DNA from: an uncultured Desulfospira sp.
GTDB lineage: Bacteria > Desulfobacterota > Desulfobacteria > Desulfobacterales > Desulfobacteraceae
Direction of reading: 5' to 3'
Assembly (NCBI GenBank): GCA_963663165.1
Contig: OY760175.1
Span: 384,001 to 448,000, forward strand
DNA: 64,000 nucleotides
A program made the translations under genes and the position numbers. Shown here one piece after another: positions 4,189 to 58,582 of this stretch (positions are counted from its first letter, which is position 1; every line of letters starts with the position of its first letter). The notes under the pieces are model-generated. The model saw nothing but the letters and a program-made list of their open reading frames with translations, made no database searches and was not told the DNA's origin.

Positions 4189-7100
4189 GTTTCAATCCTT
4201 GTTGTGATGGATCAGTTTCCGGAGGCCAACGCCGGCTACGTGGCCGTTAGCATTCATTTGGTTTCAATCCTTGTTGTGATGGATCAGTTTCCGGAGGAGA
4301 TATATCTTTCTGGTCAAACACCTATCAAATAAGTTTCAATCCTTGTTGTGATGGATCAGTTTCCGGAGGCATAGAACTTGTTTGCAAGGGAATGGATCCC
4401 GATACCTGTTTCAATCCTTGTTGTGATGGATCAGTTTCCGGAGGCAGGCACATAATAAAGGATGCCTGGTACAGATAAGGTTTCAATCCTTGTTGTGATG
4501 GATCAGTTTCCGGAGGAAGGCTGGATTATGGACTGGCAAGCATTAGATAAGGTTTCAATCCTTGTTGTGATGGATCAGTTTCCGGAGGATGAAATGGAAG
4601 AGATGAAAATCAAATATGTTGGCAAGTTTCAATCCTTGTTGTGATGGATCAGTTTCCGGAGGCCGGTATTCTCTACGGTTGCACAATGCACTTGTTCAGT
4701 TTCAATCCTTGTTGTGATGGATCAGTTTCCGGAGGTGGAGAATTGTCCTTCTCCACGGTTGTTTCCTCAAGGTTTCAATCCTTGTTGTGATGGATCAGTT
4801 TCCGGAGGAGACGATGACCTTGACGCCCAATTGGGAGATGGAACGTTTCAATCCTTGTTGTGATGGATCAGTTTCCGGAGGTGGAGAGAGTCCAGACGAT
4901 GGAAGGCTTTCCATATGTTTCAATCCTTGTTGTGATGGATCAGTTTCCGGAGGAGCGCCAATGTCAGGGATGGCGACAAGCTGGTCAAGTTTCAATCCTT
5001 GTTGTGATGGATCAGTTTCCGGAGGTATGTGCGGCGAGAGGACTGGATCATGAGTTTTGGTTTCAATCCTTGTTGTGATGGATCAGTTTCCGGAGGTGAC
5101 CGCAGGATTTATCCATGACTGCTCCACCTGGGGTTTCAATCCTTGTTGTGATGGATCAGTTTCCGGAGGCCGGAGAAAGTGGAGGTCAACCTCCTGCCGG
5201 CCGGGTTTCAATCCTTGTTGTGATGGATCAGTTTCCGGAGGCGCATCACCGCTCAACTCATAGGTAATGGAATCCAAGTTTCAATCCTTGTTGTGATGGA
5301 TCAGTTTCCGGAGGTTGGCGGTTTTATCCTTCAGGCACCAACAATAGTGATGTTTCAATCCTTGTTGTGATGGATCAGTTTCCGGAGGGCAGATCCGGGA
5401 GTGAATCTAATCGGTACCGCAACGGTTTCAATCCTTGTTGTGATGGATCAGTTTCCGGAGGACTGGCAAGCCCCGCCGAAAACTGGTTCCCGAAATGTTT
5501 CAATCCTTGTTGTGATGGATCAGTTTCCGGAGGTGTTGTGTCTGCTGGTTTAACTGCGGTTGGTAGAAGGTTTCAATCCTTGTTGTGATGGATCAGTTTC
5601 CGGAGGCGAGATTACGGGTTATGTGGCTGATACTCGTCCTGGAGTTTCAATCCTTGTTGTGATGGATCAGTTTCCGGAGGCGATTGTATAAATAAGGAAT
5701 AAGTGTTTTCGATTTTGTTTCAATCCTTGTTGTGATGGATCAGTTTCCGGAGGTATCTTTGAGACCGGGCTTAAGCATGCGTTTTCCGGTTTCAATCCTT
5801 GTTGTGATGGATCAGTTTCCGGAGGGATCATAAGGCGGCCCGGATAATCCAGGCATGCAAAGGTTTCAATCCTTGTTGTGATGGATCAGTTTCCGGAGGC
5901 TAATCGTGATCCGCCCAGATATGACCGGCTTTTGTGTTTCAATCCTTGTTGTGATGGATCAGTTTCCGGAGGGGTGGATGGTGGCCCCGGTGCTGTACCC
6001 CTCACAAAGTTTCAATCCTTGTTGTGATGGATCAGTTTCCGGAGGTCTTTTTCTTAGGGGAAAAATGGCTGGAGTGGGCCAAGTTTCAATCCTTGTTGTG
6101 ATGGATCAGTTTCCGGAGGGAGCCGGGCGTCCATCTTATGGAATTGGTTGAACGGGTTTCAATCCTTGTTGTGATGGATCAGTTTCCGGAGGTGATGTCC
6201 GGGTCGCCATGGAATCCGGCAGGATGGGGTTTCAATCCTTGTTGTGATGGATCAGTTTCCGGAGGCTGAAGAGAAGGGGATTCCCAAACCCCTTAGACGG
6301 GGGTTTCAATCCTTGTTGTGATGGATCAGTTTCCGGAGGGCCCCGTTTGCCAGCCAGGCCCTGGCCGATCAGGGGGGTTTCAATCCTTGTTGTGATGGAT
6401 CAGTTTCCGGAGGCAGCAGCCAGCTGGACGGCAACCAGGTTCTGCTGGAGTTTCAATCCTTGTTGTGATGGATCAGTTTCCGGAGGACCTGCCTTCAATC
6501 AACATGCGGCGGATGAAAGAAAGTTTCAATCCTTGTTGTGATGGATCAGTTTCCGGAGGAAAGATATCCAGATCATCCCTGTTGGAGACTTCTCAAGTTT
6601 CAATCCTTGTTGTGATGGATCAGTTTCCGGAGGTCTATACGGCATTGCCGTATGATTTTATCATGTTCAAGTTTCAATCCTTGTTGTGATGGATCAGTTT
6701 CCGGAGGTGAATCTGGCATTATGAACCAACGAACTTTTATGGCGTTTCAATCCTTGTTGTGATGGATCAGTTTCCGGAGGTGGGGCCTTGCATACGGAAA
6801 CCTCCCGCACAAAAGGGTTTCAATCCTTGTTGTGATGGATCAGTTTCCGGAGGCATCCTATGAATTCAGGTATTGTTCAATGGCCCGGAGTTTCAATCCT
6901 TGTTGTGATGGATCAGTTTCCGGAGGGCGCCGGGCATGAGCATGACGGCGATGCATTGATCGAGTTTCAATCCTTGTTGTGATGGATCAGTTTCCGGAGG
7001 CGGTTCAACAGTTTCAGCTCCCGCCAGACCCTCAGAGTTTCAATCCTTGTTGTGATGGATCAGTTTCCGGAGGGCCGTCGTAGCACTCCGTTGTCAGCCC

Positions 7101-8680
7101 GGCGTCCAGGTTTCAATCCTTGTTGTGATGGATCAGTTTCCGGAGGCGGGTATGCCAGGTATGCCCCTCTTTGTACTGATCTTGTTTCAATCCTTGTTGT
7201 GATGGATCAGTTTCCGGAGGCCGCTGCATGAGCCGGTCATAGTCCTGCCGGGGAAGTTTCAATCCTTGTTGTGATGGATCAGTTTCCGGAGGAGGATGAG
7301 TAAGAATGTTCCAAGAGTATTGGGAAAAGTTTCAATCCTTGTTGTGATGGATCAGTTTCCGGAGGCTCAACCACCTTTGCCCGCCCGTTATACGGTTTGG
7401 GTTTCAATCCTTGTTGTGATGGATCAGTTTCCGGAGGCCATTTCGCCACGGGCAGGGGAAATAGCTTTAATGGAGTTTCAATCCTTGTTGTGATGGATCA
7501 GTTTCCGGAGGGGGAAATTCCCTGCTCAAGCTGCACCTGTGCAATATGTTTCAATCCTTGTTGTGATGGATCAGTTTCCGGAGGTAGTGTGACAGCCGAT
7601 ATTCATCAATTGATTCTTTATGTTTCAATCCTTGTTGTGATGGATCAGTTTCCGGAGGTTGATCCGCTGGCGGCGTCAAGCTGGTATGTGTACTTGTTTC
7701 AATCCTTGTTGTGATGGATCAGTTTCCGGAGGCAGCAATGTCGGTGACACCCTAAAAACACCCAAAAAGTTTCAATTCTTGTTGTGATGGATCAGTTTCC
7801 GGAGGACAGGGTAAAATCCTTTCGTATGCCCGTTGAATCGAGTTTCAATCCTTGTTGTGATGGATCAGTTTCCGGAGGCCAAGGCGCTTCTGGTGGTTCA
7901 TCAAGAGGTCATAGGTTTCAATCCTTGTTGTGATGGATCAGTTTCCGGAGGACCTGAAGAATACTTGTTTTTACACCTTAACTTGAAGTTTCAATCCTTG
8001 TTGTGATGGATCAGTTTCCGGAGGTTGTCAACCGCCTTGTTTATCTCAGGGGTTTGGGCCAGTTTCAATCCTTGTTGTGATGGATCAGTTTCCGGAGGCA
8101 ACACAATAGTGAGGAGTAGGTTTCTATGCGGATGTTTCAATCCTTGTTGTGATGGATCAGTTTCCGGAGGATTATAACGGAAAAAGAGGTCGAGGCATTG
8201 GAAATTGTTTCAATCCTTGTTGTGATGGATCAGTTTCCGGAGGACATGATACACCAAGCTCAACGCCGTCTACCCTGAGTTTCAATCCTTGTTGTGATGG
8301 ATCAGTTTCCGGAGGTGCCTGGCAAGTGATTGAATCTTTGCCGGTAGAAATAGTTTCAATCCTTGTTGTGATGGATCAGTTTCCGGAGGGCCACAGAAAG
8401 GAGAAATACCATGAAAACAGCATTCAGTTTCAATCCTTGTTGTGATGGATCAGTTTCCGGAGGAATATCCGTCAGGTCTTGATGATAGATGTCCAGCGGT
8501 TTCAATCCTTGTTGTGATGGATCAGTTTCCGGAGGAGGGGGTCTTTACCATTAAGTGAGATTGTTAATTACGGTTTCAATCCTTGTTGTGATGGATCAGT
8601 TTCCGGAGGTCCAATGGATACTATATTCAAACCATGACCATGAGTTTCAATCCTTGTTGTGATGGATCAGTTTCCGGAGG
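4189..8680 (-). CRISPR. CRISPR array: 62 repeats of 37 bp (CCTCCGGAAACTGATCCATCACAACAAGGATTGAAAC on the minus strand) and 61 spacers of about 34-38 bp
   Basis: Manual count, about 73-bp period; the ATTGAAAC 3' handle and the AT-rich leader on the right give minus orientation; one variant repeat at 7769. Confidence 0.98.
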
Positions 8681-8836: not shown

Positions 8837-9439
8837 TTATCTTTCGCAAATATTTTTATAGCAACAATCAATACATCTTGTTTTATATGCAGTCCCTTTT
8901 GGGTATCGACAATTGGTAATTGTTTGATGCATATTAAAAATTATCTGGTCAAATTGTTTGAAATCTTTAATTGACAGGTTGACTTCGATTAATTTGTTTT
9001 TGCTTCTTGTGAATACCAAAAATCCTTGATTAACATTAGTGTCATAATTTTCGATAATTAACTTTGCGTAGAATACAAGTTGAAATCGGTGGGTCATGAA
9101 TAATCGGTTTTTGAATTTCGCGTATTTGAAATCTAATGGGGCCGCTGTGTGGTCTGAAAAAAATAATATTTCATCAACAACTCCACGAAGGCCCGATTTT
9201 GTAGACAGATAAACATTATTGCGTTTTTCAACCACATTAAGCTTTTTTCTTAGATATTGCCGGTTTGTTTTAATCGCAGATTCATGTATAGATCTTCCTT
9301 TCATTACTTTGAATCTTTTTTCCTGTCGTTCTGGTATATCGAGAACATACTCAAAATATGTAAATCGGGGACAATACAAGTATTCTAAGAGGTGGGTTGC
9401 GGTAAAATTGCAAGTGGCATTCATGTCTTTAACTTTCAA
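8837..9439 (-). CDS. cas4: CRISPR-associated exonuclease Cas4
   Basis: YCPR, G-x-x-x-H, GVVD, PLDFK, QLVFYA and C-terminal CIDCCYKNIC Fe-S cysteines; exact start uncertain. Confidence 0.93.
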   Translation of the reverse strand: MKVKDMNATCNFTATHLLEYLYCPRFTYFEYVLDIPERQEKRFKVMKGRSIHESAIKTNRQYLRKKLNVVEKRNNVYLSTKSGLRGVVDEILFFSDHTAAPLDFKYAKFKNRLFMTHRFQLVFYAKLIIENYDTNVNQGFLVFTRSKNKLIEVNLSIKDFKQFDQIIFNMHQTITNCRYPKGTAYKTRCIDCCYKNICER

Positions 9440-9447
9440 GATGTTCT

Positions 9448-11754
9448 TTAGAAAAATATGTCGCTGTCAAAATTATCTATGTCTTTGATCTCAAATCCTC
9501 TGCCTGGAGTGTAATATTTATCATTTAAAAAATTATAACATCCGATCTGATCAGAAATAACAGATGGATCGATTTTTTTTGAGGTCCAAATAGAAACCGT
9601 AACTTGGGCGATTCTTGATTTTAATTTTCTTAACTGCCGTTCTCGACTCCATCTGTCATCTATTTCAATGGCGAGCCTCAATTCTTCATGAAGCAGACCA
9701 GAACCGGCTGGTGGTTCATCTTGAGATGCGACAATAAAATCTATTTTTTCATGATCTCCGCGAAGCAGTTTTTTTACATTGAGATCTTCTCGCCAAAAAG
9801 CCCAGTCATCAGCAAATCGTTTTCCAACATTCATGCCTTCTTTAATAAGACGAAAATACTCAGTAATTAATTGAAACACATTCTCTTCCGGTATTGTCTC
9901 TGAAGCTTGGTTTAATATAACGCCTGTATATTCTAAAAGAGTTTTATCGTAAACAAGCCTGGAATATTTTGTATTGTTTTGGCCACATAAATTTACGATT
10001 TCAACATCAGCTCTTTTTTTTGTTCCATTACGATTGCACCGGCCAGCACATTGAACCAGGGAATCGATAGGGGCAAAATCTCTTATGACCAAGTCCATAT
10101 CGATATCTACTCCAGCTTCAATGCATTGGGTAGCAATAACGAGGCATGGCCCCTCATTTTTAATCTTATCAATATTTTCCAGTCTTTCCTTGGGTGTTAC
10201 GTCTGCGCTAAGAAAATAGGCTGCGCTTTGAATGTGGCTTCCCAGGGAATCCATTACAAATCTGGCGGATTTTCTTGTATTTAAGACAATCAGAATTTTT
10301 TTTTGATGCCAGTTTTCATCGTTTATTCGATGAATGCAGTTCTCAATGAAGGATTCAATTGATATCTTCTCAAGCCTTAAGATCATTTGATATCTGGTTT
10401 GCTGTTCAAATATCTCATCGGGGTTGTTAACCAGTTCCTTGGTTTTTATAAAATTAGGTTGAGTTGCCGACATTATCAAGAACTTAGAATTGAAATTCGT
10501 GGTAAGTGTGGAGACTGCAAGATTCAATGGTTCCCACAATTGAGGTGGTAAAGCCTGAATTTCATCCATGATAATCAAAGCATCAGTTAAATTGTGGAAA
10601 CGCAGCAGATGTTTTTTTTCGGAAGAAAGAAGTGCATACAAAAATTGATCAAAAGTCGTGATGATGAAATCATAATTCCAGGTTTCTGAAAAAAAATCTA
10701 CCGCCTTATTATAATCGTTGTCGATGTCCTGGTCCTCTCCTTCCTTGTACTGACGTCCGGCGATGGAGTGGGCCTCCAGAATTATGTTTTCGGCATTGCA
10801 GCCTGAGAATAACTGTCTGTACTCTTTTACGGTCTGGTCAATGATTGATAAAAACGGCAGCACGATAATTACTTTTCTGGACACAGGTGAACCCATTCTG
10901 TGTGTCAATGCCCATTGAGCTGCGACCAGGGTTTTTCCAAGTCCTGTGGGCAGTGTTACGCTTTCAATATTGGGATCAATGGAACTGTTCTGGATAATCT
11001 GCTGCCTGACAATGGTTCTTTTTTGATTCAGCGGCTCCTTTCTCTGCTTTTCTGTTGTTTTACTGATAATGTAGTTATCTATTAAACACGGGGGTAATTC
11101 AGTTTCTTTAGATCGGTCTGTATTTGAATCTCTGAATTCAGGGCTTAAAGCCAGAAAAGTCCGGTCCGATTCCAAAAGAACGGAAAATAGCAATTGGGCT
11201 TTAAGCCTTGTTAGCGAAGCAATTTCCAGTGAAAGGGTTTCAATATAATTCTCCGGTAAAATATCTTCCAACTGGAGATCGGAATCTTTTTGTTTAAAAT
11301 CAAGCTGTAAATCTAATTCTCGATTCACCTGATCAACGGGATAGAGTCCTATCTTATAGTCGTCTTCGTAAAAGTACAGTGTATTGTAAAATAATTCCTT
11401 GATGGTTGGAAATCTGCCATGATGACGCCATATGGCAGCAGTGACAATCAATGCAAACTCATTTGGGATTTCACTTTTCAACGCATAGGCAAGCCACAGC
11501 AAGAGCGAAACCGGGGTATGGGCCTTTAGAATTGGATCCCCCCTATATTTCTCAGGCGCTTCGATATAGGCTTGGAAGGCCGGGGTGGCTTTCCCAAGAT
11601 CATGGAAGTCAATTGCAAGATTTAGCGGGTAATGAAGCACTTCACAAACTTGATCAGAGTGCTTTTTTTCAATCAGTCTGCCTGCCTGGTGTACTTCATA
11701 AACGTGATCTTTCAACGATTTATACGGCTTGCAATGGGACTGAATCATAGCCAT
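9448..11754 (-). CDS. cas3: Cas3 HD nuclease/helicase
   Basis: FHDLGK and HHG HD-domain motifs; LPTGLGKT, DEIQ, SAT, EAGVDID and QCAGRCNR helicase motifs. Confidence 0.95.
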   Translation of the reverse strand: MAMIQSHCKPYKSLKDHVYEVHQAGRLIEKKHSDQVCEVLHYPLNLAIDFHDLGKATPAFQAYIEAPEKYRGDPILKAHTPVSLLLWLAYALKSEIPNEFALIVTAAIWRHHGRFPTIKELFYNTLYFYEDDYKIGLYPVDQVNRELDLQLDFKQKDSDLQLEDILPENYIETLSLEIASLTRLKAQLLFSVLLESDRTFLALSPEFRDSNTDRSKETELPPCLIDNYIISKTTEKQRKEPLNQKRTIVRQQIIQNSSIDPNIESVTLPTGLGKTLVAAQWALTHRMGSPVSRKVIIVLPFLSIIDQTVKEYRQLFSGCNAENIILEAHSIAGRQYKEGEDQDIDNDYNKAVDFFSETWNYDFIITTFDQFLYALLSSEKKHLLRFHNLTDALIIMDEIQALPPQLWEPLNLAVSTLTTNFNSKFLIMSATQPNFIKTKELVNNPDEIFEQQTRYQMILRLEKISIESFIENCIHRINDENWHQKKILIVLNTRKSARFVMDSLGSHIQSAAYFLSADVTPKERLENIDKIKNEGPCLVIATQCIEAGVDIDMDLVIRDFAPIDSLVQCAGRCNRNGTKKRADVEIVNLCGQNNTKYSRLVYDKTLLEYTGVILNQASETIPEENVFQLITEYFRLIKEGMNVGKRFADDWAFWREDLNVKKLLRGDHEKIDFIVASQDEPPAGSGLLHEELRLAIEIDDRWSRERQLRKLKSRIAQVTVSIWTSKKIDPSVISDQIGCYNFLNDKYYTPGRGFEIKDIDNFDSDIFF

Positions 11755-12473
11755 TGGAGTATATGCTCCCCTGCTTTTACGGCATGTTCCGTTTCGATTG
11801 AAAGTGTATTGCCACCAACCGGGTATAGATATGTTGCATGGGAAAACTGCCTGTCGCTTGTCAGAGCGCGGGGCATACGAATGGATTTTGCCGCCATGTT
11901 CTTTTCAAGAAGATCCTCTATATTCAAAGATACCTGATCCCGACGGATCAATGTTTTTACGTGGTATTTTCCCATGGGTAATGGTTCTACTGCCGAAGTA
12001 TTCACAAAGGTCAGGTCTGCCGCCATTTCAGACAGCCCAAGGCAGGGTGAAAAATGCCACTGTCTGGTTTTAATTCGGCGACATAAATCAGAATAAAAGG
12101 GCTCGGGGATTTGAGCGAAAACGGTATAGTCAGGGCGGATGAGCCATTCCTGAATGATCTGGGTATTTCTTTGGTGTTTTGAAGATCCCAGCGCATTTTT
12201 TGTTACCTGAAACGGTAGCATGCCCGGCGGATCTTTCCTCAAGTTGGCAGTATGCCAATGGGTCAGGGCAGAACCTCCTGAAACGGCAATGTTTGCGTCT
12301 TCAAGCTTTACCTGGCAAGTGTCTTTTTCAAAGCCCATCACGGCACCGAGCAGGCCGAGCAATGCTGTTCGCGGTGGAAATGGGTAGCTTGGGGCCGACG
12401 CATTCGCTTCGGCCCTTAAAAAATGTCCGTATTTCCCCGTGTATTTAAAAATGACACATTGATTGTTTGTCAT
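11745..12473 (-). CDS. cas5: Cas5 (type I-B)
   Basis: GKYGHF...SYPFPPRTALLGLLGAVMG and PCLGLSEM. Confidence 0.93.
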   Translation of the reverse strand: MTNNQCVIFKYTGKYGHFLRAEANASAPSYPFPPRTALLGLLGAVMGFEKDTCQVKLEDANIAVSGGSALTHWHTANLRKDPPGMLPFQVTKNALGSSKHQRNTQIIQEWLIRPDYTVFAQIPEPFYSDLCRRIKTRQWHFSPCLGLSEMAADLTFVNTSAVEPLPMGKYHVKTLIRRDQVSLNIEDLLEKNMAAKSIRMPRALTSDRQFSHATYLYPVGGNTLSIETEHAVKAGEHILQWL

Positions 12474-12489
12474 TGTTTGTCCTCAAAAA

Positions 12490-13425
12490 TTAATCAATTT
12501 TAAGAGCAGTCCAGTCTGCAGGAAGCGCAGATGAAAATTCGATATCCGGTGATGCTTCATATGATATTGCCTCAATTTTTTCAGAAAATTGATTAAGTCT
12601 TTCCAAAAGCTGGTTTAAATCCACCTGATAATCCTTTGGAGAGCTCCATGCCTTTTCTTCTTTCCCATTTTTAGGAACTAAAGCAATATAATCTGACAGG
12701 TTCCCGAATTGAAATTCTGTGTCCTTTTTGTAAGTCAAGGATATCAAAAGCCTCGGGACCTGACCGAATTTGGATCGCGTATTACCGGCACCCCTTACTC
12801 CCTTCCACATGGTTTCAAGCACCGTATTGTAGTCAGTTTCGGTCATCCTGGACAACCGGGCTGAATGCTCGTTTGCAACACCATTAAATCCGATAAGCGC
12901 ATACCTCAACGCATAATAGGCGGTAAAGGTGCCCTGGGTTTTGCTTTCGCTGGAACCAAAGGTCGTTGTGCCATGGATATCTACAGGCTCCGCATCATGC
13001 ATCACCTCTCCATGATTAAACTGCAATGCCCCGGTTAAGGTTTTGGGTACCGGCTTGGCCTCCCAGGTCCCCTCCTGCTTAAAAGCTAATGAGCTGCCAA
13101 ACAATCTGGCATCAATAAAGGAATCCAGAAGGATCGTTACAAGTTCCTCACCGGTGGCTTCTGGTTTCCCTATCTTCTGAAGATGATGGGCTACTCGTCC
13201 GGTCAAGTTGGTGGTCTTGTCTTCAATGGTATCAACAAGGATGGCATGTCCCTGGGTTTTGAACTGATCTCTGATAAACCGTTTCAATCTGACATCCGTG
13301 ACATAGTAGGTGCCGTCCGGCAATACCCTGGGTCGATTTTCATCGGGATCGCCATTTGGGTTCCCCATTTTAATATCATATGCAAAAAACAGTTCCCGCC
13401 TTGAGGTCAATAATTCATTTGTCAT
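12490..13425 (-). CDS. cas7: Cas7 (Csh2-like, type I-B)
   Basis: GNPNGDPDENRPR, VTDVRLKRFIRD, IDARLFG, TRSKFGQVPR. Confidence 0.93.
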   Translation of the reverse strand: MTNELLTSRRELFFAYDIKMGNPNGDPDENRPRVLPDGTYYVTDVRLKRFIRDQFKTQGHAILVDTIEDKTTNLTGRVAHHLQKIGKPEATGEELVTILLDSFIDARLFGSSLAFKQEGTWEAKPVPKTLTGALQFNHGEVMHDAEPVDIHGTTTFGSSESKTQGTFTAYYALRYALIGFNGVANEHSARLSRMTETDYNTVLETMWKGVRGAGNTRSKFGQVPRLLISLTYKKDTEFQFGNLSDYIALVPKNGKEEKAWSSPKDYQVDLNQLLERLNQFSEKIEAISYEASPDIEFSSALPADWTALKID

Positions 13426-13442
13426 CGGTATATCTCCTTAAG

Positions 13443-13868
13443 TTATTTTTTTGTTTCTTTTTTAGTTGAAAACAAATCTGAGGCGATTGATTGGCCTAAA
13501 AGAATAAAGTAGCAGCATGGGGTTTGATCTAACGAAATGGTGTCGCCCAAAAGGGTTCCAAGAGCACCGGCTTCCCTGATGACCTCCCTGAGTTGAGAAC
13601 TGCCTTCAGCATCATATGCCAATAGCTTCTCGCGAATTTTAACGTAAAAGCCCGGCAAATCCTTACCCGTTAGAGTGAGTCTTTTCAGCCATGTCAGGGC
13701 ATTGGCATTGACATTGACCCCTTTGCCCCCCTGAAGGGCAAGCACACGTCCGAATAAGATTCCAAGAATAAAAGCAAACGCTTTTTCGTTACTTGTGATA
13801 CCGGATTCTTCAGAAAAGTACGGTTCAAGATCTTTCATTTTCGGGACGTAGGTTCTTAGGTTTTCCAT
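13443..13868 (-). CDS. Putative internally translated Cas11 small subunit (141 aa, in frame within cas8b)
   Basis: GGAGGT at 13884-13879, 10 nt before an in-frame ATG (MENLRTYVPK...). Confidence 0.55.
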   Translation of the reverse strand: MENLRTYVPKMKDLEPYFSEESGITSNEKAFAFILGILFGRVLALQGGKGVNVNANALTWLKRLTLTGKDLPGFYVKIREKLLAYDAEGSSQLREVIREAGALGTLLGDTISLDQTPCCYFILLGQSIASDLFSTKKETKK

Positions 13869-15440
13869 TTTAATCATTACCTCCATGTGGTGTAAATAAC
13901 TAAGGGCCCAGGCCAGATGTCTGATCCATCCGGCAAAGGTCCACCAGTATGTATCATTTTTTTGTGAAAACCCTTCCTGCAGACAATCGAATTCCGGTTT
14001 TTCTTTTTCAAGGATGGATAGCAGGTACCACCGGGCAGTGGTCAGTATTTCTTCTTCAAACCGCTGTTTAGGAATGGGCTTATTTTTGTATATGGCCTCA
14101 ACCATCAAGCGTTTAAGCTCCGTGAGCTTTCTGCTGGCGTTTACGCTGCCCGCTTTTTTGCCACCCGGTCTTCGCAGCAAGGGGAAAATAAATGAACAAT
14201 TTAGGTCGAACTTAAATTCTTCTATAACGGCGTGAATTGGGAAAAGCGGAGAACTTTTTTCATTAAACTCCCTGTTCAGCTTGTCAATCTGCTTTAGCCT
14301 TGAGGGAAGAATATCGGTAATTTTTCCCGATAGATTTCCCATACTTTGGCCTTTTAGGCTGTCGTTGGACCAAATCACATCAACCGAGCATACAGCCGTA
14401 TGCCTTTTAAAAAGTCTTATCAGTTTTAATTGTTCAATTTTCAGCGCCTCTTGGGGGGCACTGGCAATTTCTTTGATATAGACCTGGTAATCTGCTATGA
14501 ACTTCGAAATTAGATCTGAATCACTGTACAACTCTGGAATCATAAGTGATTCCTGACCGGCAAGGTAGGTGATGAAATTATGATTGACATGAAATTTATA
14601 AACATAAAGCAAATCTGCGCAATGTTCACACAGGGCATATGAGAGATGGGCATTCTGGTTGGTTATCCCCGGAAATGCACCCTCACGGTCAATATTAAAA
14701 ATATTCATCCCGGCTTTGGACAGACCCGCAGCAAACCCTTTGACATTTTTCGACCCGCAGCAGGGGCATTGGTCCAGGTCAACAGGTTTTGCTTTGGCCA
14801 AGGAATATTTTTTTTCACCGTCCAGCATGGTGGCCAGATAATTCCTATATCCTGAAACCTGTCCAGGGAGACAGCCTTGTGTTTTAAACGCTAAAAAGAC
14901 TGGCTTTGATTCGGGAATAATCTCAACTGCGGTATGAAAAGCATTATGCTTGCACTCGTGAAGTTCTCCAGCATAATAAAGCCTTGCGTGGCTGAAGACC
15001 CGGTGACATTCTTTAAAAAAACCTGCCCACTCCTTTTCTGATGTTGAAAATTTTTCAAAATTTTTAAGGGTGGAGGTGATGATCTGCAGGGTGGGGCCCG
15101 GACCTTTCTGCTTGGAATAGGAGCGCTTGATGACAGGGCCGATTTGCGGAGACCGAGGACCGCTTGGTTTGTTAAAAGGCAGAAAAGAGGCTACATTTTC
15201 ACCTAATGATTCAATGGAAGCACTCTCAAGAATTGTACCGTTTTCATCTTCCGGAGATTGACTCAGGGTATAATATTTTTCTATCTTTCCGGATGGTTCA
15301 ACCAGAAAGGGGAAAAATCGCCCCGGATCTCTATTCTTTTCTTGGACAAACCATTGTCTCAGATCCTCCGGAAGGGGATTGATACCCTCAAGGTTTTTCC
15401 AAAGATGACAGAGTGCCAGGTTTTGCATTATATCAAGCAT
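13443..15440 (-). CDS. cas8b: Cas8b large subunit (TM1802/Csh1-like)
   Basis: 665 aa between cas6 and cas7; CPCC and LCEHC Zn ligands; helical C-terminus with AFILGILFG and YFILLG. Confidence 0.8.
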   Translation of the reverse strand: MLDIMQNLALCHLWKNLEGINPLPEDLRQWFVQEKNRDPGRFFPFLVEPSGKIEKYYTLSQSPEDENGTILESASIESLGENVASFLPFNKPSGPRSPQIGPVIKRSYSKQKGPGPTLQIITSTLKNFEKFSTSEKEWAGFFKECHRVFSHARLYYAGELHECKHNAFHTAVEIIPESKPVFLAFKTQGCLPGQVSGYRNYLATMLDGEKKYSLAKAKPVDLDQCPCCGSKNVKGFAAGLSKAGMNIFNIDREGAFPGITNQNAHLSYALCEHCADLLYVYKFHVNHNFITYLAGQESLMIPELYSDSDLISKFIADYQVYIKEIASAPQEALKIEQLKLIRLFKRHTAVCSVDVIWSNDSLKGQSMGNLSGKITDILPSRLKQIDKLNREFNEKSSPLFPIHAVIEEFKFDLNCSFIFPLLRRPGGKKAGSVNASRKLTELKRLMVEAIYKNKPIPKQRFEEEILTTARWYLLSILEKEKPEFDCLQEGFSQKNDTYWWTFAGWIRHLAWALSYLHHMEVMIKMENLRTYVPKMKDLEPYFSEESGITSNEKAFAFILGILFGRVLALQGGKGVNVNANALTWLKRLTLTGKDLPGFYVKIREKLLAYDAEGSSQLREVIREAGALGTLLGDTISLDQTPCCYFILLGQSIASDLFSTKKETKK

Positions 15441-15454
15441 GGACCCACTCCTTT

Positions 15455-16126
15455 TTATAGTATTTTCTGGATGGTGCCGAATCCCCGTGATACTGATTTC
15501 CCAAGTCCTATATAGTCCGGCAATAGAAAATTTGTTTTAAAAATGCCTTTAAACCCGATCATCGATTTACCCTTTAAAGTAGTTTTCGATGGCTTAATGC
15601 TAAGGTCTGTTTCAATTCTCTGGTCTCGTTCTAAATGGCAGCCAAGATATTTGGCACAGGACAGGATATTTCCGGTAAGAATTTTTTTAAGAAGTGATTT
15701 TTTGTCCCTGCTGTCAGCCATTTCGGTAAACAGGTTATAATTGTGCTGATTTAATGCCAGCCATAACGATTTAAATTCATACATAAATGTTTCTGGCGAG
15801 AATCCGAAATCCGTATTTTCGATTTTCAGATTTTTTTCATTAATTGGAATAACCTTGCCTTCAATGTCGACTTTGTCCAGTGTCATGAAAATTTGCATGA
15901 ATATCTGAATCGCTTTTTCTGTCAAGGCGATTATACAGGGCGTCTGATCAACAAGTTTAAACTGGATCAAAGGATATCGATAAATGTGTTGGCCGGTTTT
16001 TGTATTATGGTTGTGAACCAGATCATACTCGGAAAATACGTTGCCGACATAACCCCTGAATTTATGGATCTGGGAGGGGGTTAGGCGGATGTCATTAAAA
16101 TAAAGAGATGCTTTTTTCACAATCAT
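15455..16126 (-). CDS. cas6: Cas6 (Cas6b-like) crRNA endoribonuclease
   Basis: FRGY, LVHNH, YRYPLIQFK and the C-terminal G-rich loop IGLGKSVSRGFG. Confidence 0.92.
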   Translation of the reverse strand: MIVKKASLYFNDIRLTPSQIHKFRGYVGNVFSEYDLVHNHNTKTGQHIYRYPLIQFKLVDQTPCIIALTEKAIQIFMQIFMTLDKVDIEGKVIPINEKNLKIENTDFGFSPETFMYEFKSLWLALNQHNYNLFTEMADSRDKKSLLKKILTGNILSCAKYLGCHLERDQRIETDLSIKPSKTTLKGKSMIGFKGIFKTNFLLPDYIGLGKSVSRGFGTIQKIL

Positions 16127-16141
16127 TATTCCAGTATTAGC

Positions 16142-16342
16142 TTAAAATTTGTGATGATTGTTTTTGCTACAGCCAATCTGTAATCCAAATGAAAAATTTA
16201 AAGAAAACAAATAAGTCTTTCGTGACGGAATTGTACCCATCGTCGGTTTGGCAAGTTTGATTTTTGTGAAAACTGAATCCGAATAGTTGCTGACATTTTT
16301 TTTAAGGGTCATGAAATGGTTTGGGATCAAATTTTTGTTCAT
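16142..16342 (-). CDS. Small hypothetical ORF (66 aa) upstream of cas6; candidate CRISPR-repressed toxin or leader peptide
   Basis: Strong GGAGG SD (16352-16348) before the ATG; stop 15 bp before cas6; no recognisable family. Confidence 0.45.
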   Translation of the reverse strand: MNKNLIPNHFMTLKKNVSNYSDSVFTKIKLAKPTMGTIPSRKTYLFSLNFSFGLQIGCSKNNHHKF

Positions 16343-16364
16343 TCTTACCTCCAAATTTGGCCTA

Positions 16365-16389
16365 CATAGTTAATCCTATATCACATTAA
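16365..16389 (-). promoter_or_regulatory. Predicted target of the crRNA-like RNA (TTA PAM + ATGTGATATAGGATT)
   Basis: 13/15 identity to the spacer starting at 16505, mismatched only at positions 6 and 12; lies between TTGACA (16435-16430) and the SD of the small ORF. Confidence 0.75.
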
Positions 16390-16443
16390 AAATTTTGTGT
16401 GGCTTTAATCTTTTCATCTTCTGTCATTTTGTCAAGAAAAAAC

Positions 16444-16472
16444 TTGAAAATAAAAATACCAATACCCATAAT
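16444..16472 (+). promoter_or_regulatory. Sigma70 promoter TTGAAA-17 bp-CATAAT for the crRNA-like RNA
   Basis: Exact 17-bp spacing; predicted +1 near 16479, inside degenerate repeat 1; divergent from the cas6 operon. Confidence 0.65.
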
Positions 16473-16477
16473 TAGCT

Positions 16478-16558
16478 ATCCATGTCAGAAAAAAGGATTG
16501 AAAAATGTGCTATAGAATTTAGCTATGACTGCTAATCCATTATAATAAGGATCGAATT
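16478..16558 (+). ncRNA. crRNA-like regulatory RNA (CreR/CreA type): degenerate repeat, short spacer, degenerate repeat
   Basis: Repeat 1 is ATCCAT...AAGGATTGAAAA (11 of the last 12 nt of the array repeat); repeat 2 (16532-16558) is 20/27 identical; both keep the ATCC/GGAT stem. Confidence 0.75.
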
Positions 16559-16563
16559 TGCAG

Positions 16564-16863
16564 TTAAAAAAACTTGGATAAAATTTCATCATTCACCAAT
16601 TTCCTGTCAAAGCCTTGGCCCAACACCTGGATGCGTCTAAAGTCCTCCTGGCAGAATGGGAAGAGATAAACACTGTCCGTGTCTTCGTCCATGAGATCCA
16701 GACAGTATTCGGCCAGCTCGTCGAAACGGCTGGTGTCCAGGTGGCCCAAAAAGATGCTTTTCTGGACGCGGGTCAAGCCGTATTTTTTGCAGACCTTTGC
16801 AATTTTACTCCGGACCTTATTCTCGGCAATGTCATACATGATCCAGGCGAGGATGGAACTCAT
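16564..16863 (-). CDS. cas2: Cas2
   Basis: MYDI...RSKIAKVCKKYGLTRVQKSIFLG and DSVYLFP. Confidence 0.95.
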   Translation of the reverse strand: MSSILAWIMYDIAENKVRSKIAKVCKKYGLTRVQKSIFLGHLDTSRFDELAEYCLDLMDEDTDSVYLFPFCQEDFRRIQVLGQGFDRKLVNDEILSKFF

Positions 16864-17876
16864 TAAAACTCCTTTATTGTAAGCCAGTCAGGGCGGACCA
16901 TATCGGAATCTTCTAAAAGGATATTGGCCAGGCGGTGTGCCTCGTGACTGATTATATGTTTTCGTTTGACGTTTTTCCTGCGATAGCGAACTTTTTCCTC
17001 CAAATGTTTGTTCAATGCATCTATGACCTGTGGTTTGCCTTTTGTATTCAGTGTGCAGGAATGTTCCTGGACATCGAAGTATTCACCTTTTGCCTTTTTG
17101 CCGGTGAAAAAATACACCGCCACCTGATCAGCAAAGATTCGGAAGGGTTCAATAAGGTCAAAGACCAGGGACTTTTTATTGTAGTTATCGGAATGCATAA
17201 AGCCCACAAAGGGATCAAGTCCGGCAATGATGCAGGCTTTCTCAACCCGCGAATAAAGGACCCCATAACAATAGTTCAGGGCAGCGTTAAAGGGATTCAG
17301 TGCCGGATGCCTTGACCGGCCTTTGAACCGGTATTTTTCCGGCATGACTTTAGAAATGCAGGAAAAATATGCCCGGCCGGCTGCTCCTTCAAGGCCCATG
17401 ATAAGAGATCGGGATTTATCAAGATCGCTAAGATCACAATTCAATGCTTCAAGGGAACCCTCAATGGTATGAATGGGGGCGTCAAACATATCCTTTTTAT
17501 CCCGTCGGGCATATTTGAGTTTTTTCAGAAAGGCAATCTGGTTTTCCAGTTTGTTTTGTATCATACCAATGACCAGCCTTACCCCGGTCTCGTCTTCAGC
17601 TGCTTGAAGCTGCTTTCTTCGGATCAGTGCGGTAGAACCCATTTTTGAAAACCATACCCTGCCCAAAGGGAAACCATATTTGTCCAGAAATACCAGGTCA
17701 ATATTGTGCTCCAGGGCCAGGGAGATAGCAGCGGTAGAAACCATTGCCTGGTTGGAAACAATAATTGATTCCAGCTTCAATGGTGATAATTCCAGTTTGT
17801 TTTCCCTGTTCTGAAACAAAAAAATTTCATTTTTCTGTTTAACCAGGGTGCCGGGAGAGTTAACTATTAATTGGAT
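16863..17876 (-). CDS. cas1: Cas1; the likely start is a non-canonical ATC at 17876
   Basis: MGLEGAAGRAYF, NAALNYCYGVLY, GFMH and SLVFDLIEPFR; the frame extends 19 codons past the ORF-track start to ATC-CAA-TTA (IQLIVNSPG) behind an AAGGAG SD. Confidence 0.92.
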   Translation of the reverse strand: MQLIVNSPGTLVKQKNEIFLFQNRENKLELSPLKLESIIVSNQAMVSTAAISLALEHNIDLVFLDKYGFPLGRVWFSKMGSTALIRRKQLQAAEDETGVRLVIGMIQNKLENQIAFLKKLKYARRDKKDMFDAPIHTIEGSLEALNCDLSDLDKSRSLIMGLEGAAGRAYFSCISKVMPEKYRFKGRSRHPALNPFNAALNYCYGVLYSRVEKACIIAGLDPFVGFMHSDNYNKKSLVFDLIEPFRIFADQVAVYFFTGKKAKGEYFDVQEHSCTLNTKGKPQVIDALNKHLEEKVRYRRKNVKRKHIISHEAHRLANILLEDSDMVRPDWLTIKEF

Positions 17877-42248: not shown

Positions 42249-42386
42249 GAGAGTCCTTTTCTATGAGCAGTTAGCTGTTAGCAATTAGCAGTTAGCTGTT
42301 AGCTATGAGCTGTTAGCTGTTAGCAATTGGCTGTTAGTCCTTAAGCTAAAAGCTAAAGGCTAAAAGCTAATAGCTAAAATCCTAAT

Positions 42387-55108: not shown

Positions 55109-55217
55109 GGAAGCCTCCGTTAGCTGTTAGCCGTTAGCTGTTAGCTATTAGCTGTTGGTTGTGGGCCTTTTTGCCCATGTATCTGGTATTAAACGGTTAT
55201 CTGTTTAAATATCGGGC

Positions 55218-58361: not shown

Positions 58362-58582
58362 CGGTTGACTGGGTTGGAACTTAAGGTTGAATATGGCAAT
58401 TTTTTAAAATACAGGCCAATGGGTGAAAGCCATTAGCCGTTAGCTATAAGCTATTAGCCGTTAGCTTCCGGGTTGAGCCAGCCCGCTAATTGCTAACAGC
58501 TAACGGCTAACAGCTAGCCAAAGCTTTGGCTGGCGTTTGAGTTAAAAAAAGTGTAGACCGGAAAGGATGAAATAAGGAAAAA

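Follow-up and report, generated by a model that had tools for sequence, protein, structure and literature searches.

An orphan 66-codon reading frame behind a predicted Cascade target in a type I-B cas locus: leader of the cas operon or repressed toxin?

Between cas2 and cas6b in a CRISPR (short palindromic repeats, clustered and regularly interspaced) locus of an uncultured Desulfospira sp., a gap of 437 nucleotides (nt) holds an open reading frame (ORF) of 66 codons, hereafter ORF66, and its position raises the question of whether this small gene is a toxin held in check by the cell's own CRISPR effector. The locus lies in a stretch of 64,000 nt (GenBank assembly GCA_963663165.1, contig OY760175.1, positions 384,001 to 448,000 of the forward strand), which we refer to as the window and from whose first letter all positions are counted. 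The original prediction for this gap, made from the sequence alone, was that a CRISPR RNA (crRNA)-like transcript guides Cascade (CRISPR-associated complex for antiviral defence) to a site just ahead of ORF66, and that ORF66 or its mRNA may be a new toxin kept silent in this way, with a neutral leader ORF as the fallback. Our analyses support this interpretation in part: the regulatory site is borne out, and ORF66 seems to be a lineage-specific leader ORF ahead of the cas operon rather than a new toxin. The explanation we prefer, which we hold to be about evenly poised between right and wrong, is that the gap is a CreR-type autoregulatory module and that ORF66 is a translated leader ORF of the operon under its control.

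The evidence for a regulatory module comes from the anatomy of the gap. Its plus strand carries, antisense to the cas genes, a mini-CRISPR that abuts the cas2 stop codon and in which two degenerate repeats (psiR1 and psiR2) flank a spacer-like segment (psiS; coordinates of all features are collected in Table 1). The 3' part of the array repeat, AAGGATTGAAA, recurs exactly at 16493-16503 within psiR1, its sole plus-strand copy away from the array, and one match with a single mismatch, at 1411, falls within an ORF. Over its first 17 nt, psiS agrees with a site ahead of ORF66 at positions 1-5, 7-11, 13-15 and 17, with mismatches at positions 6, 12 and 16. Structures of type I Cascade show that positions 6 and 12 are left unpaired, and a count that disregards the mismatches at these two places gives 13 contiguous seed positions. 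This match, together with its TTA flank, was equalled by none of 3000 shuffles of the gap, and in the whole 6.74-Mb genome only two places offer 13 seed positions, namely psiS itself and the target ahead of ORF66. The flank is read as a protospacer-adjacent motif (PAM) solely from agreement among five loci (TTA four times, TTG once), and a comparison of the whole array with 50,697 phage records, which might have supplied protospacers for the PAM, gave no match. The predicted crRNA-like target is supported by a PAM-flanked spacer match whose only mismatches among the seed positions are at 6 and 12, and the distance from its matched part to the ATG of ORF66, predicted as about 30 nt, measures 27 nt, the target lying 260 nt upstream of cas6. 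Two degenerate repeats flanking a spacer-like segment inside a cas locus, and a seed-first partial match to a PAM-flanked site upstream of the effector cas genes, are the sequence features by which CreR elements and regulatory mini-arrays are recognised, and both are found here. We also considered an origin of the insert from the CRISPR leader, which was rejected given a similarity score of 27 against a shuffle maximum of 38, and a search for its origin elsewhere in the genome gave no significant match, just two short matches of 17 and 25 nt.

Because ORF66 stands right behind a PAM-flanked, spacer-matched site with mismatches at positions 6 and 12, expression on the cas side of the gap is plausibly controlled by Cascade. 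Under the explanation we prefer, the mini-CRISPR would be transcribed from the plus strand by its own promoter, likely the TTGAAA-17-CATAAT just upstream of psiR1 (a similar CATATT was seen by eye in the same place in a related locus, L002), and Cas6b would cut the transcript in psiR1 and psiR2 to release a crRNA-like RNA. Loaded with this RNA, Cascade would bind the TTA-flanked target without recruiting cleavage, since the pairing is partial and stops after about 17 nt, and its binding would lower transcription into ORF66-cas6b-cas8b-cas7-cas5-cas3-cas4. Two routes to such repression can be envisaged. Cascade may occlude a promoter whose candidate -10 element (TG-n-TATAGG, recognised by eye inside the target) overlaps the bound site, or it may block polymerases arriving from upstream, whether from the TTAACT-17-TATAAT at the end of cas2 or from a second cas-strand candidate, the TTGACA at 16435-16430 (by eye). 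Negative feedback of this kind is what has been reported for CreR and for type I-B mini-arrays ahead of cas6.

What, then, is ORF66? The description of its start held up in full: a strong GGAGG Shine-Dalgarno (SD) sequence precedes the ATG, the peptide is basic (isoelectric point, pI, 10.25; 10 lysines and arginines against 1 acidic residue), and the stop codon is followed after 15 nt (16141-16127) by the ATG of cas6b at 16126, all on the minus strand. The program-listed ORF spans 16142-16354, its start being taken at a TTG inside the SD sequence, and we count ORF66 from the ATG instead. Within this locus, the SDs of cas2, cas8b and cas7 are of comparable quality. ORF66 contains no in-frame stop where 4.7 would be expected, the other five frames having 2-5 each, and the probability of none is about 0.008 for one frame. 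Frames of at least 66 codons arose in 0.4% of mononucleotide and 1.7% of first-order Markov shuffles of the 244-nt stretch from target to cas6 (20,000 shuffles each), so that the length of ORF66 exceeds chance only modestly. Given its SD and its improbable length, ORF66 is probably translated. It also shares its reading frame with cas6b, from which the TAA and five codons separate it. This is probably a coincidence: the Cas6 proteins of relatives begin at an aligned MKK, on which ground we rejected ORF66 as an N-terminal extension of Cas6. Either ATG 16126 or GTG 16120 may be the start of cas6b, and it is GTG 16120 that aligns with the relatives' ATG-AAA-AAA.

The same features bear on a simpler explanation, namely that ORF66 is a chance open frame without function in the untranslated leader of a Cascade-repressed cas6 operon, in which case only the mini-array, its target and the promoter would matter. 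The base composition of ORF66 is that of spacer DNA (31.8% GC; the gap has 30.7%, the cas genes have 37-47% and the whole genome has 50%), and there is no codon-usage signal, the in-frame codon log-odds being negative (-0.21) and not above that of frame 3. GC content rises from the first to the third codon position (GC1<GC2<GC3), which is unlike five of the six cas genes tested, cas4 being the exception. AlphaFold, run without an alignment, gave two helices at low confidence (predicted local distance difference test, pLDDT, 66.5; predicted template modelling score, pTM, 0.29), too weak for a fold search. An orphan status in protein searches, a low recognition score in the ESM Atlas and a related locus (L004) with mini-array and target and no such ORF, all detailed below, fit a chance frame too. 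However, chance would have to supply an ideally spaced GGAGG before the first ATG, a frame free of stops to an extent that few shuffles reach, and a closure of that frame just before cas6, a layout of SD, ORF and cas6 that recurs in L002. We therefore regard a meaningless frame as a real possibility, if on balance a doubtful one. Contigs from four sequencing runs are identical to the window over 15400-17000 and provide zero variants by which selection could be judged.

The claim that ORF66 encodes a new CRISPR-repressed toxin found no support in searches for homologues or for toxin-like features. A word-indexed search of 5.8 billion proteins returned only ORF66 itself, and a full run of HMMER across 1.84 billion representatives recovered it along with two further proteins, P0002 (E 1e-12) and P0003 (E 2e-7). 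Both were rejected as homologues, since each is a tandem repeat in translation, with matches spread over 10 and 7 stretches, respectively. There was no match to any family in Pfam (E up to 1), NCBIfam, PADLOC or PHROGs, thus none to a toxin or defence family, and Pfam in particular revealed no KilAC or PIN domain. In the ESM Atlas the best score was 0.75 and the recognition score 1185, both within the range of shuffled sequences. A tblastn comparison with the DNA ahead of cas6 in those related loci that it covered (the cas2-cas6 gap or, for want of a recognised cas2, about 900 nt) yielded nothing at E<0.3. Furthermore, the peptide has no membrane segment (best 19-residue Kyte-Doolittle window 0.38; grand average of hydropathy -0.39).

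A small basic protein toxin silenced by Cascade and a crRNA-like RNA, such that loss or inhibition of Cascade harms the cell, would be an analogue of CreP in CrePA. The place of ORF66 directly behind the target and its strong SD are as such a toxin would have them, and protein toxins under creA control do exist, CreP being one (Shu et al., 10.1101/2024.01.05.574328). Toxin-antitoxin cargo has been described under mini-arrays (Shmakov et al., PMC10120712), creT toxins are reported to be likewise poorly conserved (Cheng et al. 2021, PMC8501985), and two of the related loci discussed below place a PIN gene, in one of them truncated, behind a mini-array. Against this stand the lack of any homologue, toxin or defence family, KilAC or PIN domain in the searches above, the missing membrane segment, the lack of a confident fold, and the absence of ORF66 from the two relatives that share the antisense mini-array. 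Moreover, no terminator was found between ORF66 and cas6, and consequently de-repression would raise Cascade too, restoring repression. A protein toxin is, in our judgement, unlikely, and of the two ideas in the original prediction the leader ORF is the better reading.

Should the RNA rather than the peptide be toxic, a CreT-like transcript would sequester a rare tRNA or otherwise jam translation. Of the four elements listed for CreT of H. hispanica (PMC8501985), ORF66 shows two, a strong SD and an AUG, both placed behind a creA-like target. However, judged by a codon list set against genome usage, ORF66 has no tandem rare codons: those present (CCA, CGA and ACT) stand alone, and the start codon is not directly followed by any of them. 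Nor is there a stable stem-loop or any unusual RNA structure, the fold of 301 nt having a z-score of +0.35 against shuffles and the 3' hairpin region one of -0.01, and we find a toxic transcript scarcely credible. It is also conceivable that ORF66 is a small protein with another role at the locus, such as regulation through nucleic-acid binding or modulation of Cas6 or Cascade, and the basic peptide, its two predicted helices and its probable translation would suit such a role. Its orphan status in every search and its absence from every relative examined, the closest included, make this very improbable.

Genome and metagenome searches for Cas6b relatives yielded 49 loci, 46 of them distinct, and in 27 of the 46 (the window included) cas2 lies directly upstream of cas6 on the same strand. 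The gap between the two genes is at most 35 nt in 12 of these, 85-183 nt in 3 and more than 200 nt in 12, again including the window, and a separate look added L020 as a thirteenth tight junction; in relatives without an insert, cas6 starts 6-33 nt past the cas2 stop. Scans of metagenomes and genomes with Cas6 gave 7 and 4 loci, respectively, none of them above 70% identity, and a family-wide genome search provided the closest relative, L049 (76% Cas6 identity), in which the gap is 18 nt and the whole insert is missing, mini-array and ORF included. Of the 26 other cas2-cas6 loci, two, L002 (70% Cas6 identity) and L004 (59%), proved to have a homologous antisense mini-array that likewise abuts cas2; since detection relied on the window's repeat, mini-arrays with divergent repeats may have escaped this count. 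ORF66 itself is absent from L002, L004 and L049. The original prediction had made conservation of the ORF alongside the mini-array a test of the toxin idea, and on this test the idea fails: L002 has an unrelated ORF of 40 amino acids (aa), and L004 has none.

Across five mini-arrays, the handle-forming parts are conserved, namely the 3' part of psiR1 and the 5' and middle part of psiR2, and the spacer is variable. The spacer of L004 has a target of its own, with 10 seed positions and a TTG flank, and six of 3000 shuffles did as well. In two further loci, L030 and L036, where the mini-array is in sense orientation, the site that the spacer matches has a TTA flank and lies over the putative -10 of the element's own promoter, with 13 seed positions in L030 (1 of 3000 shuffles) and 14 in L036 (0 of 3000). 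Spacers and targets have thus changed together while the flank has remained TTA or TTG, a pattern that marks a functioning pair of guide and target.

The cas2-cas6 junction also appears to be an insertion hotspot in this clade, as judged from its varied cargo in L002, L005, L006, L030, L033 and L036, and some of the inserts are, by their family matches, real toxin genes. L002 carries an SD-led (GGGGTG) ORF of 40 codons, encoding an acidic peptide (pI 4.8), which opens about 20 nt past the putative target and closes 2 nt short of cas6; BLASTP gave no alignment between it and ORF66, and the two sequences are unrelated. In L004 there are only frames of 8 and 10 codons that lack an SD, and cas6 has a GGGAA of its own (by eye). 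An orphan ORF of 91-93 aa fills the gap of L005 (oriented 1195-1476; L005:2188-2469:-), with no Pfam or PADLOC family and a single PHROGs match at E 0.31, and in L006 (L006:577-1492) a gene with an ORF6N domain (177 aa, Pfam 3e-35) is inserted at the junction, where cas6 is immediately preceded by a duplicate of the 3' end of cas2 (a 48-aa frame). The same slot is taken in L030 and L033 by a PIN toxin gene together with an antitoxin gene of MazE/AbrB type. In L030 (L030:887-1504) the mini-CRISPR sits between the antitoxin gene and the PIN gene, just upstream of cas6; L036 (oriented 1100-1490) has the same layout, with the antitoxin gene kept and the PIN gene truncated to 55 aa, and L033 has the same toxin-antitoxin pair as L030 without a mini-array. 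The arrangement in L030 and L036 is a candidate for a CRISPR-guarded PIN toxin in type I-B, and it is in part because this slot holds true toxins in some relatives that the toxin idea survives for ORF66.

Other features of these relatives were noted in passing. The gap of L004 contains a long imperfect inverted repeat between mini-array and target (oriented ~1085-1265; by eye), which resembles a small insertion. In L009, L041 and L043 a second, divergent cas6-like gene (220-246 aa) replaces cas2 immediately upstream of cas6, and in L041 several repeat-like pieces lie ahead of it.

Returning to the leader ORF that we prefer, our best guess is that the insert broke a tight cas2-cas6 junction, and that ribosomes translating ORF66 stop 15 nt before the SD-poor cas6b and re-initiate there. 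Selection would then act on the open frame and not on the sequence of ORF66, and the peptide sequence indeed appears not to be under conservation, the frame being lineage-specific as far as the relatives indicate. Such a hand-over of ribosomes would jointly explain the improbable open frame, the orphan, spacer-like sequence and the unrelated ORF in the same layout in L002. In its favour, cas2, cas8b, cas7, cas5 and cas3 have good SDs, whereas cas6b has only GGA, the weakest in the operon, and ORF66 has an SD like those of real cas genes; in addition, L002 repeats the SD-led ORF ending just before cas6 with an unrelated sequence.

Several observations weigh against this explanation, in one or other of its parts. 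The two cas-strand candidates for the promoter that Cascade would block are consensus matches only (the TTGACA found by eye). The L002 spacer matches only when its register is moved by 4 nt, an offset picked post hoc; this gives 8 seed positions beside a TTA flank, equalled in 44 of 3000 shuffles, and nothing stood out at offset 0 (1501 of 3000 shuffles). Coupling cannot be general: L004 retains its mini-array and has nothing comparable to ORF66, and in several long-gap relatives no ORF ends near cas6. An 8-bp stem that would pair the 3' end of ORF66 with the start of cas6 (ACAAUCAU/AUGAUUGU) is no more stable than in shuffles (the z of -0.01 given above), and the open frame itself could be chance at the 0.4-1.7% level. 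Finally, in L030 a PIN toxin lies between target and cas6, and the presence of a genuine toxin there makes the slot compatible with toxin cargo.

Table 1 Positions in the window of ORF66, the elements of the mini-CRISPR and the surrounding cas locus
Feature	Position	Strand	Details
ORF66 (protein P0001)	16142..16342	-	66 codons plus TAA (16144-16142), ATG at 16342; from sequence and translation
ORF66 Shine-Dalgarno, GGAGG	16348..16352	-	5-nt spacing to ATG 16342
Predicted Cascade target	16363..16389	-	TTA flank 16389-16387; protospacer from 16386; matched part 16386-16370
Promoter-like TTGAAA-17-CATAAT	16444..16472	+	10/12 consensus; just upstream of psiR1
psiR1, degenerate repeat	16474..16504	+	3' end ATTGAAAA (16497-16504) corresponds to the 8-nt 5' handle; from alignments
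psiS, spacer-like segment	16505..16531	+	Length 17-30 nt depending on psiR2 start
psiR2, second degenerate repeat	16532..16556	+	Matches repeat positions 11-35; abuts cas2 stop codon
Promoter-like TTAACT-17-TATAAT	16539..16567	-	End of cas2; 10/12 consensus; one candidate ORF66-cas6 promoter
HTH (helix-turn-helix) and M78-peptidase (ImmA/IrrE-like) gene, 375 aa	17890..19017	-	Directly upstream of cas1, same direction
cas1	16863..17819	-	Between the HTH/M78-peptidase gene and cas2
cas2	16564..16863	-	TIGR01573, 1.3e-13
cas6b	15455..16126	-	Pfam Cas6b_N 7e-24, Cas6b_C 2.5e-39; weak SD
cas8b, cas7, cas5, cas3, cas4	8837..15440	-	NCBIfam matches; downstream of cas6b, same direction
CRISPR array, 62 repeats of 37 nt	4189..8680	- (crRNA strand)	Minus-strand repeat ends in ATTGAAAC

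The wider locus is of type I-B and would be transcribed leftwards, with the minus-strand order HTH/M78-peptidase gene, cas1, cas2, the 437-nt gap, cas6b, cas8b, cas7, cas5, cas3, cas4 and CRISPR array. The repeat end ATTGAAAC is the usual 8-nt handle of type I-B crRNAs, and the HTH/M78-peptidase gene is a possible further regulator of the locus. One array spacer (window 5170-5204) is identical over 35/35 positions to the cell's own chromosome (C1:4755511-4755545), inside an ORF of 713 aa. The 5' flank of this self-match is CCG, as opposed to TTA or TTG at the regulatory targets, which would fit toleration of the match for want of a PAM. Away from the cas locus, several intergenic spots in the window (42266-42379, 55119-55156 and 58427-58466) hold short arrays of 7-nt and 21-nt units (AGCTGTT, AAGCTAA, GTTAGCT and the like).

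If the explanation we prefer is right, this locus is another case in which CRISPR represses its own effector genes by way of a degenerate mini-CRISPR, here in a type I-B locus of the kind found in sulfate reducers, and one in which an insertion has been patched by a new SD-led frame that restores the delivery of ribosomes to cas6. It would also hold a lesson for annotation, in that an SD-led orphan ORF behind a Cascade target is insufficient to call a toxin. Were ORF66 a toxin after all, it would give bacterial type I-B systems their first CreP-like protein guard, and be part of a habit of this I-B clade of keeping toxins in the cas2-cas6 gap under mini-arrays, as the PIN gene of L030 and its truncated copy in L036 suggest. 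In either case, the cas2-cas6 junction of this clade is a place to search for CRISPR-guarded toxins in type I-B, and the mini-arrays ahead of the PIN toxin gene in related I-B loci merit a look of their own.

With reference to known systems, translationally coupled upstream ORFs occur in bacterial operons, and ORF66 resembles them in the strong SD on the upstream frame, the stop 15 nt before a weak-SD start and the single transcript that the two frames would share, the difference being that pairing between the ORF66 end and the cas6 start is at chance level and that coupling is here a proposal. ORF66 differs from the small membrane toxins of the type I kind (under ~60-70 aa) in its lack of a hydrophobic transmembrane segment. 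CreTA, a Cascade-repressed pair of RNA toxin and antitoxin, is described from a haloarchaeal I-B system (Cheng et al. 2021, PMC8501985), and the likeness to the window lies in the subtype, in the position between cas genes, and in a creA-like RNA that partly matches a site ahead of an SD-led start. The CreT described there is a mini-ORF of 4-6 codons in which two consecutive rare codons come directly behind an efficient start, with a stable stem-loop downstream (PMC8501985). ORF66 shares with it the strong SD and AUG/GUG start (GGAGG, 5 nt, ATG), whereas it has 66 codons, lacks tandem rare codons and lacks a stable structure. In CrePA of Acinetobacter type I-F, CreP is a KilAC protein of 103 aa with 50 homologues, always in the same place (10.1101/2024.01.05.574328); ORF66 is likewise a protein-coding ORF downstream of a creA-type target and upstream of effector genes, but it has neither a domain nor recurrent homologues, and the subtype differs.

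The closest parallels are the CreR elements and regulatory mini-arrays. Shmakov et al. (PMC10120712) describe type I-B mini-arrays that lie upstream of cas6 and have their target between themselves and that gene, and the window shows the same arrangement, with related loci both with and without the element. In creA and creR, the 3' handle part of psiR1 and the 5' and middle part of psiR2 are reported to be kept, the spacer being variable, and the working definition given there separates creR from creA by the lack of a coupled toxin gene (Liu et al., 10.1101/2023.03.10.532045). ORF66 is the only candidate for a coupled toxin here, and it has no toxin-like sequence features. Like CreR elements and mini-arrays, the window has a degenerate two-repeat mini-CRISPR in a cas locus, psiR1 keeping the 5'-handle part and psiR2 the 3'-handle part, and a spacer that pairs partially with a PAM-flanked site upstream of the effector cas genes. 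It differs from them in that its mini-array runs antisense to the cas genes, directly against the cas2 stop, within a cas1-cas2-cas6 order, and in that the leader from target to cas6 is taken up by a 66-codon ORF with an SD of its own, repression being predicted here. Taken together, the sequence-level tests support the assignment of the module in the cas2-cas6 gap to the known CreR and regulatory mini-array kind.

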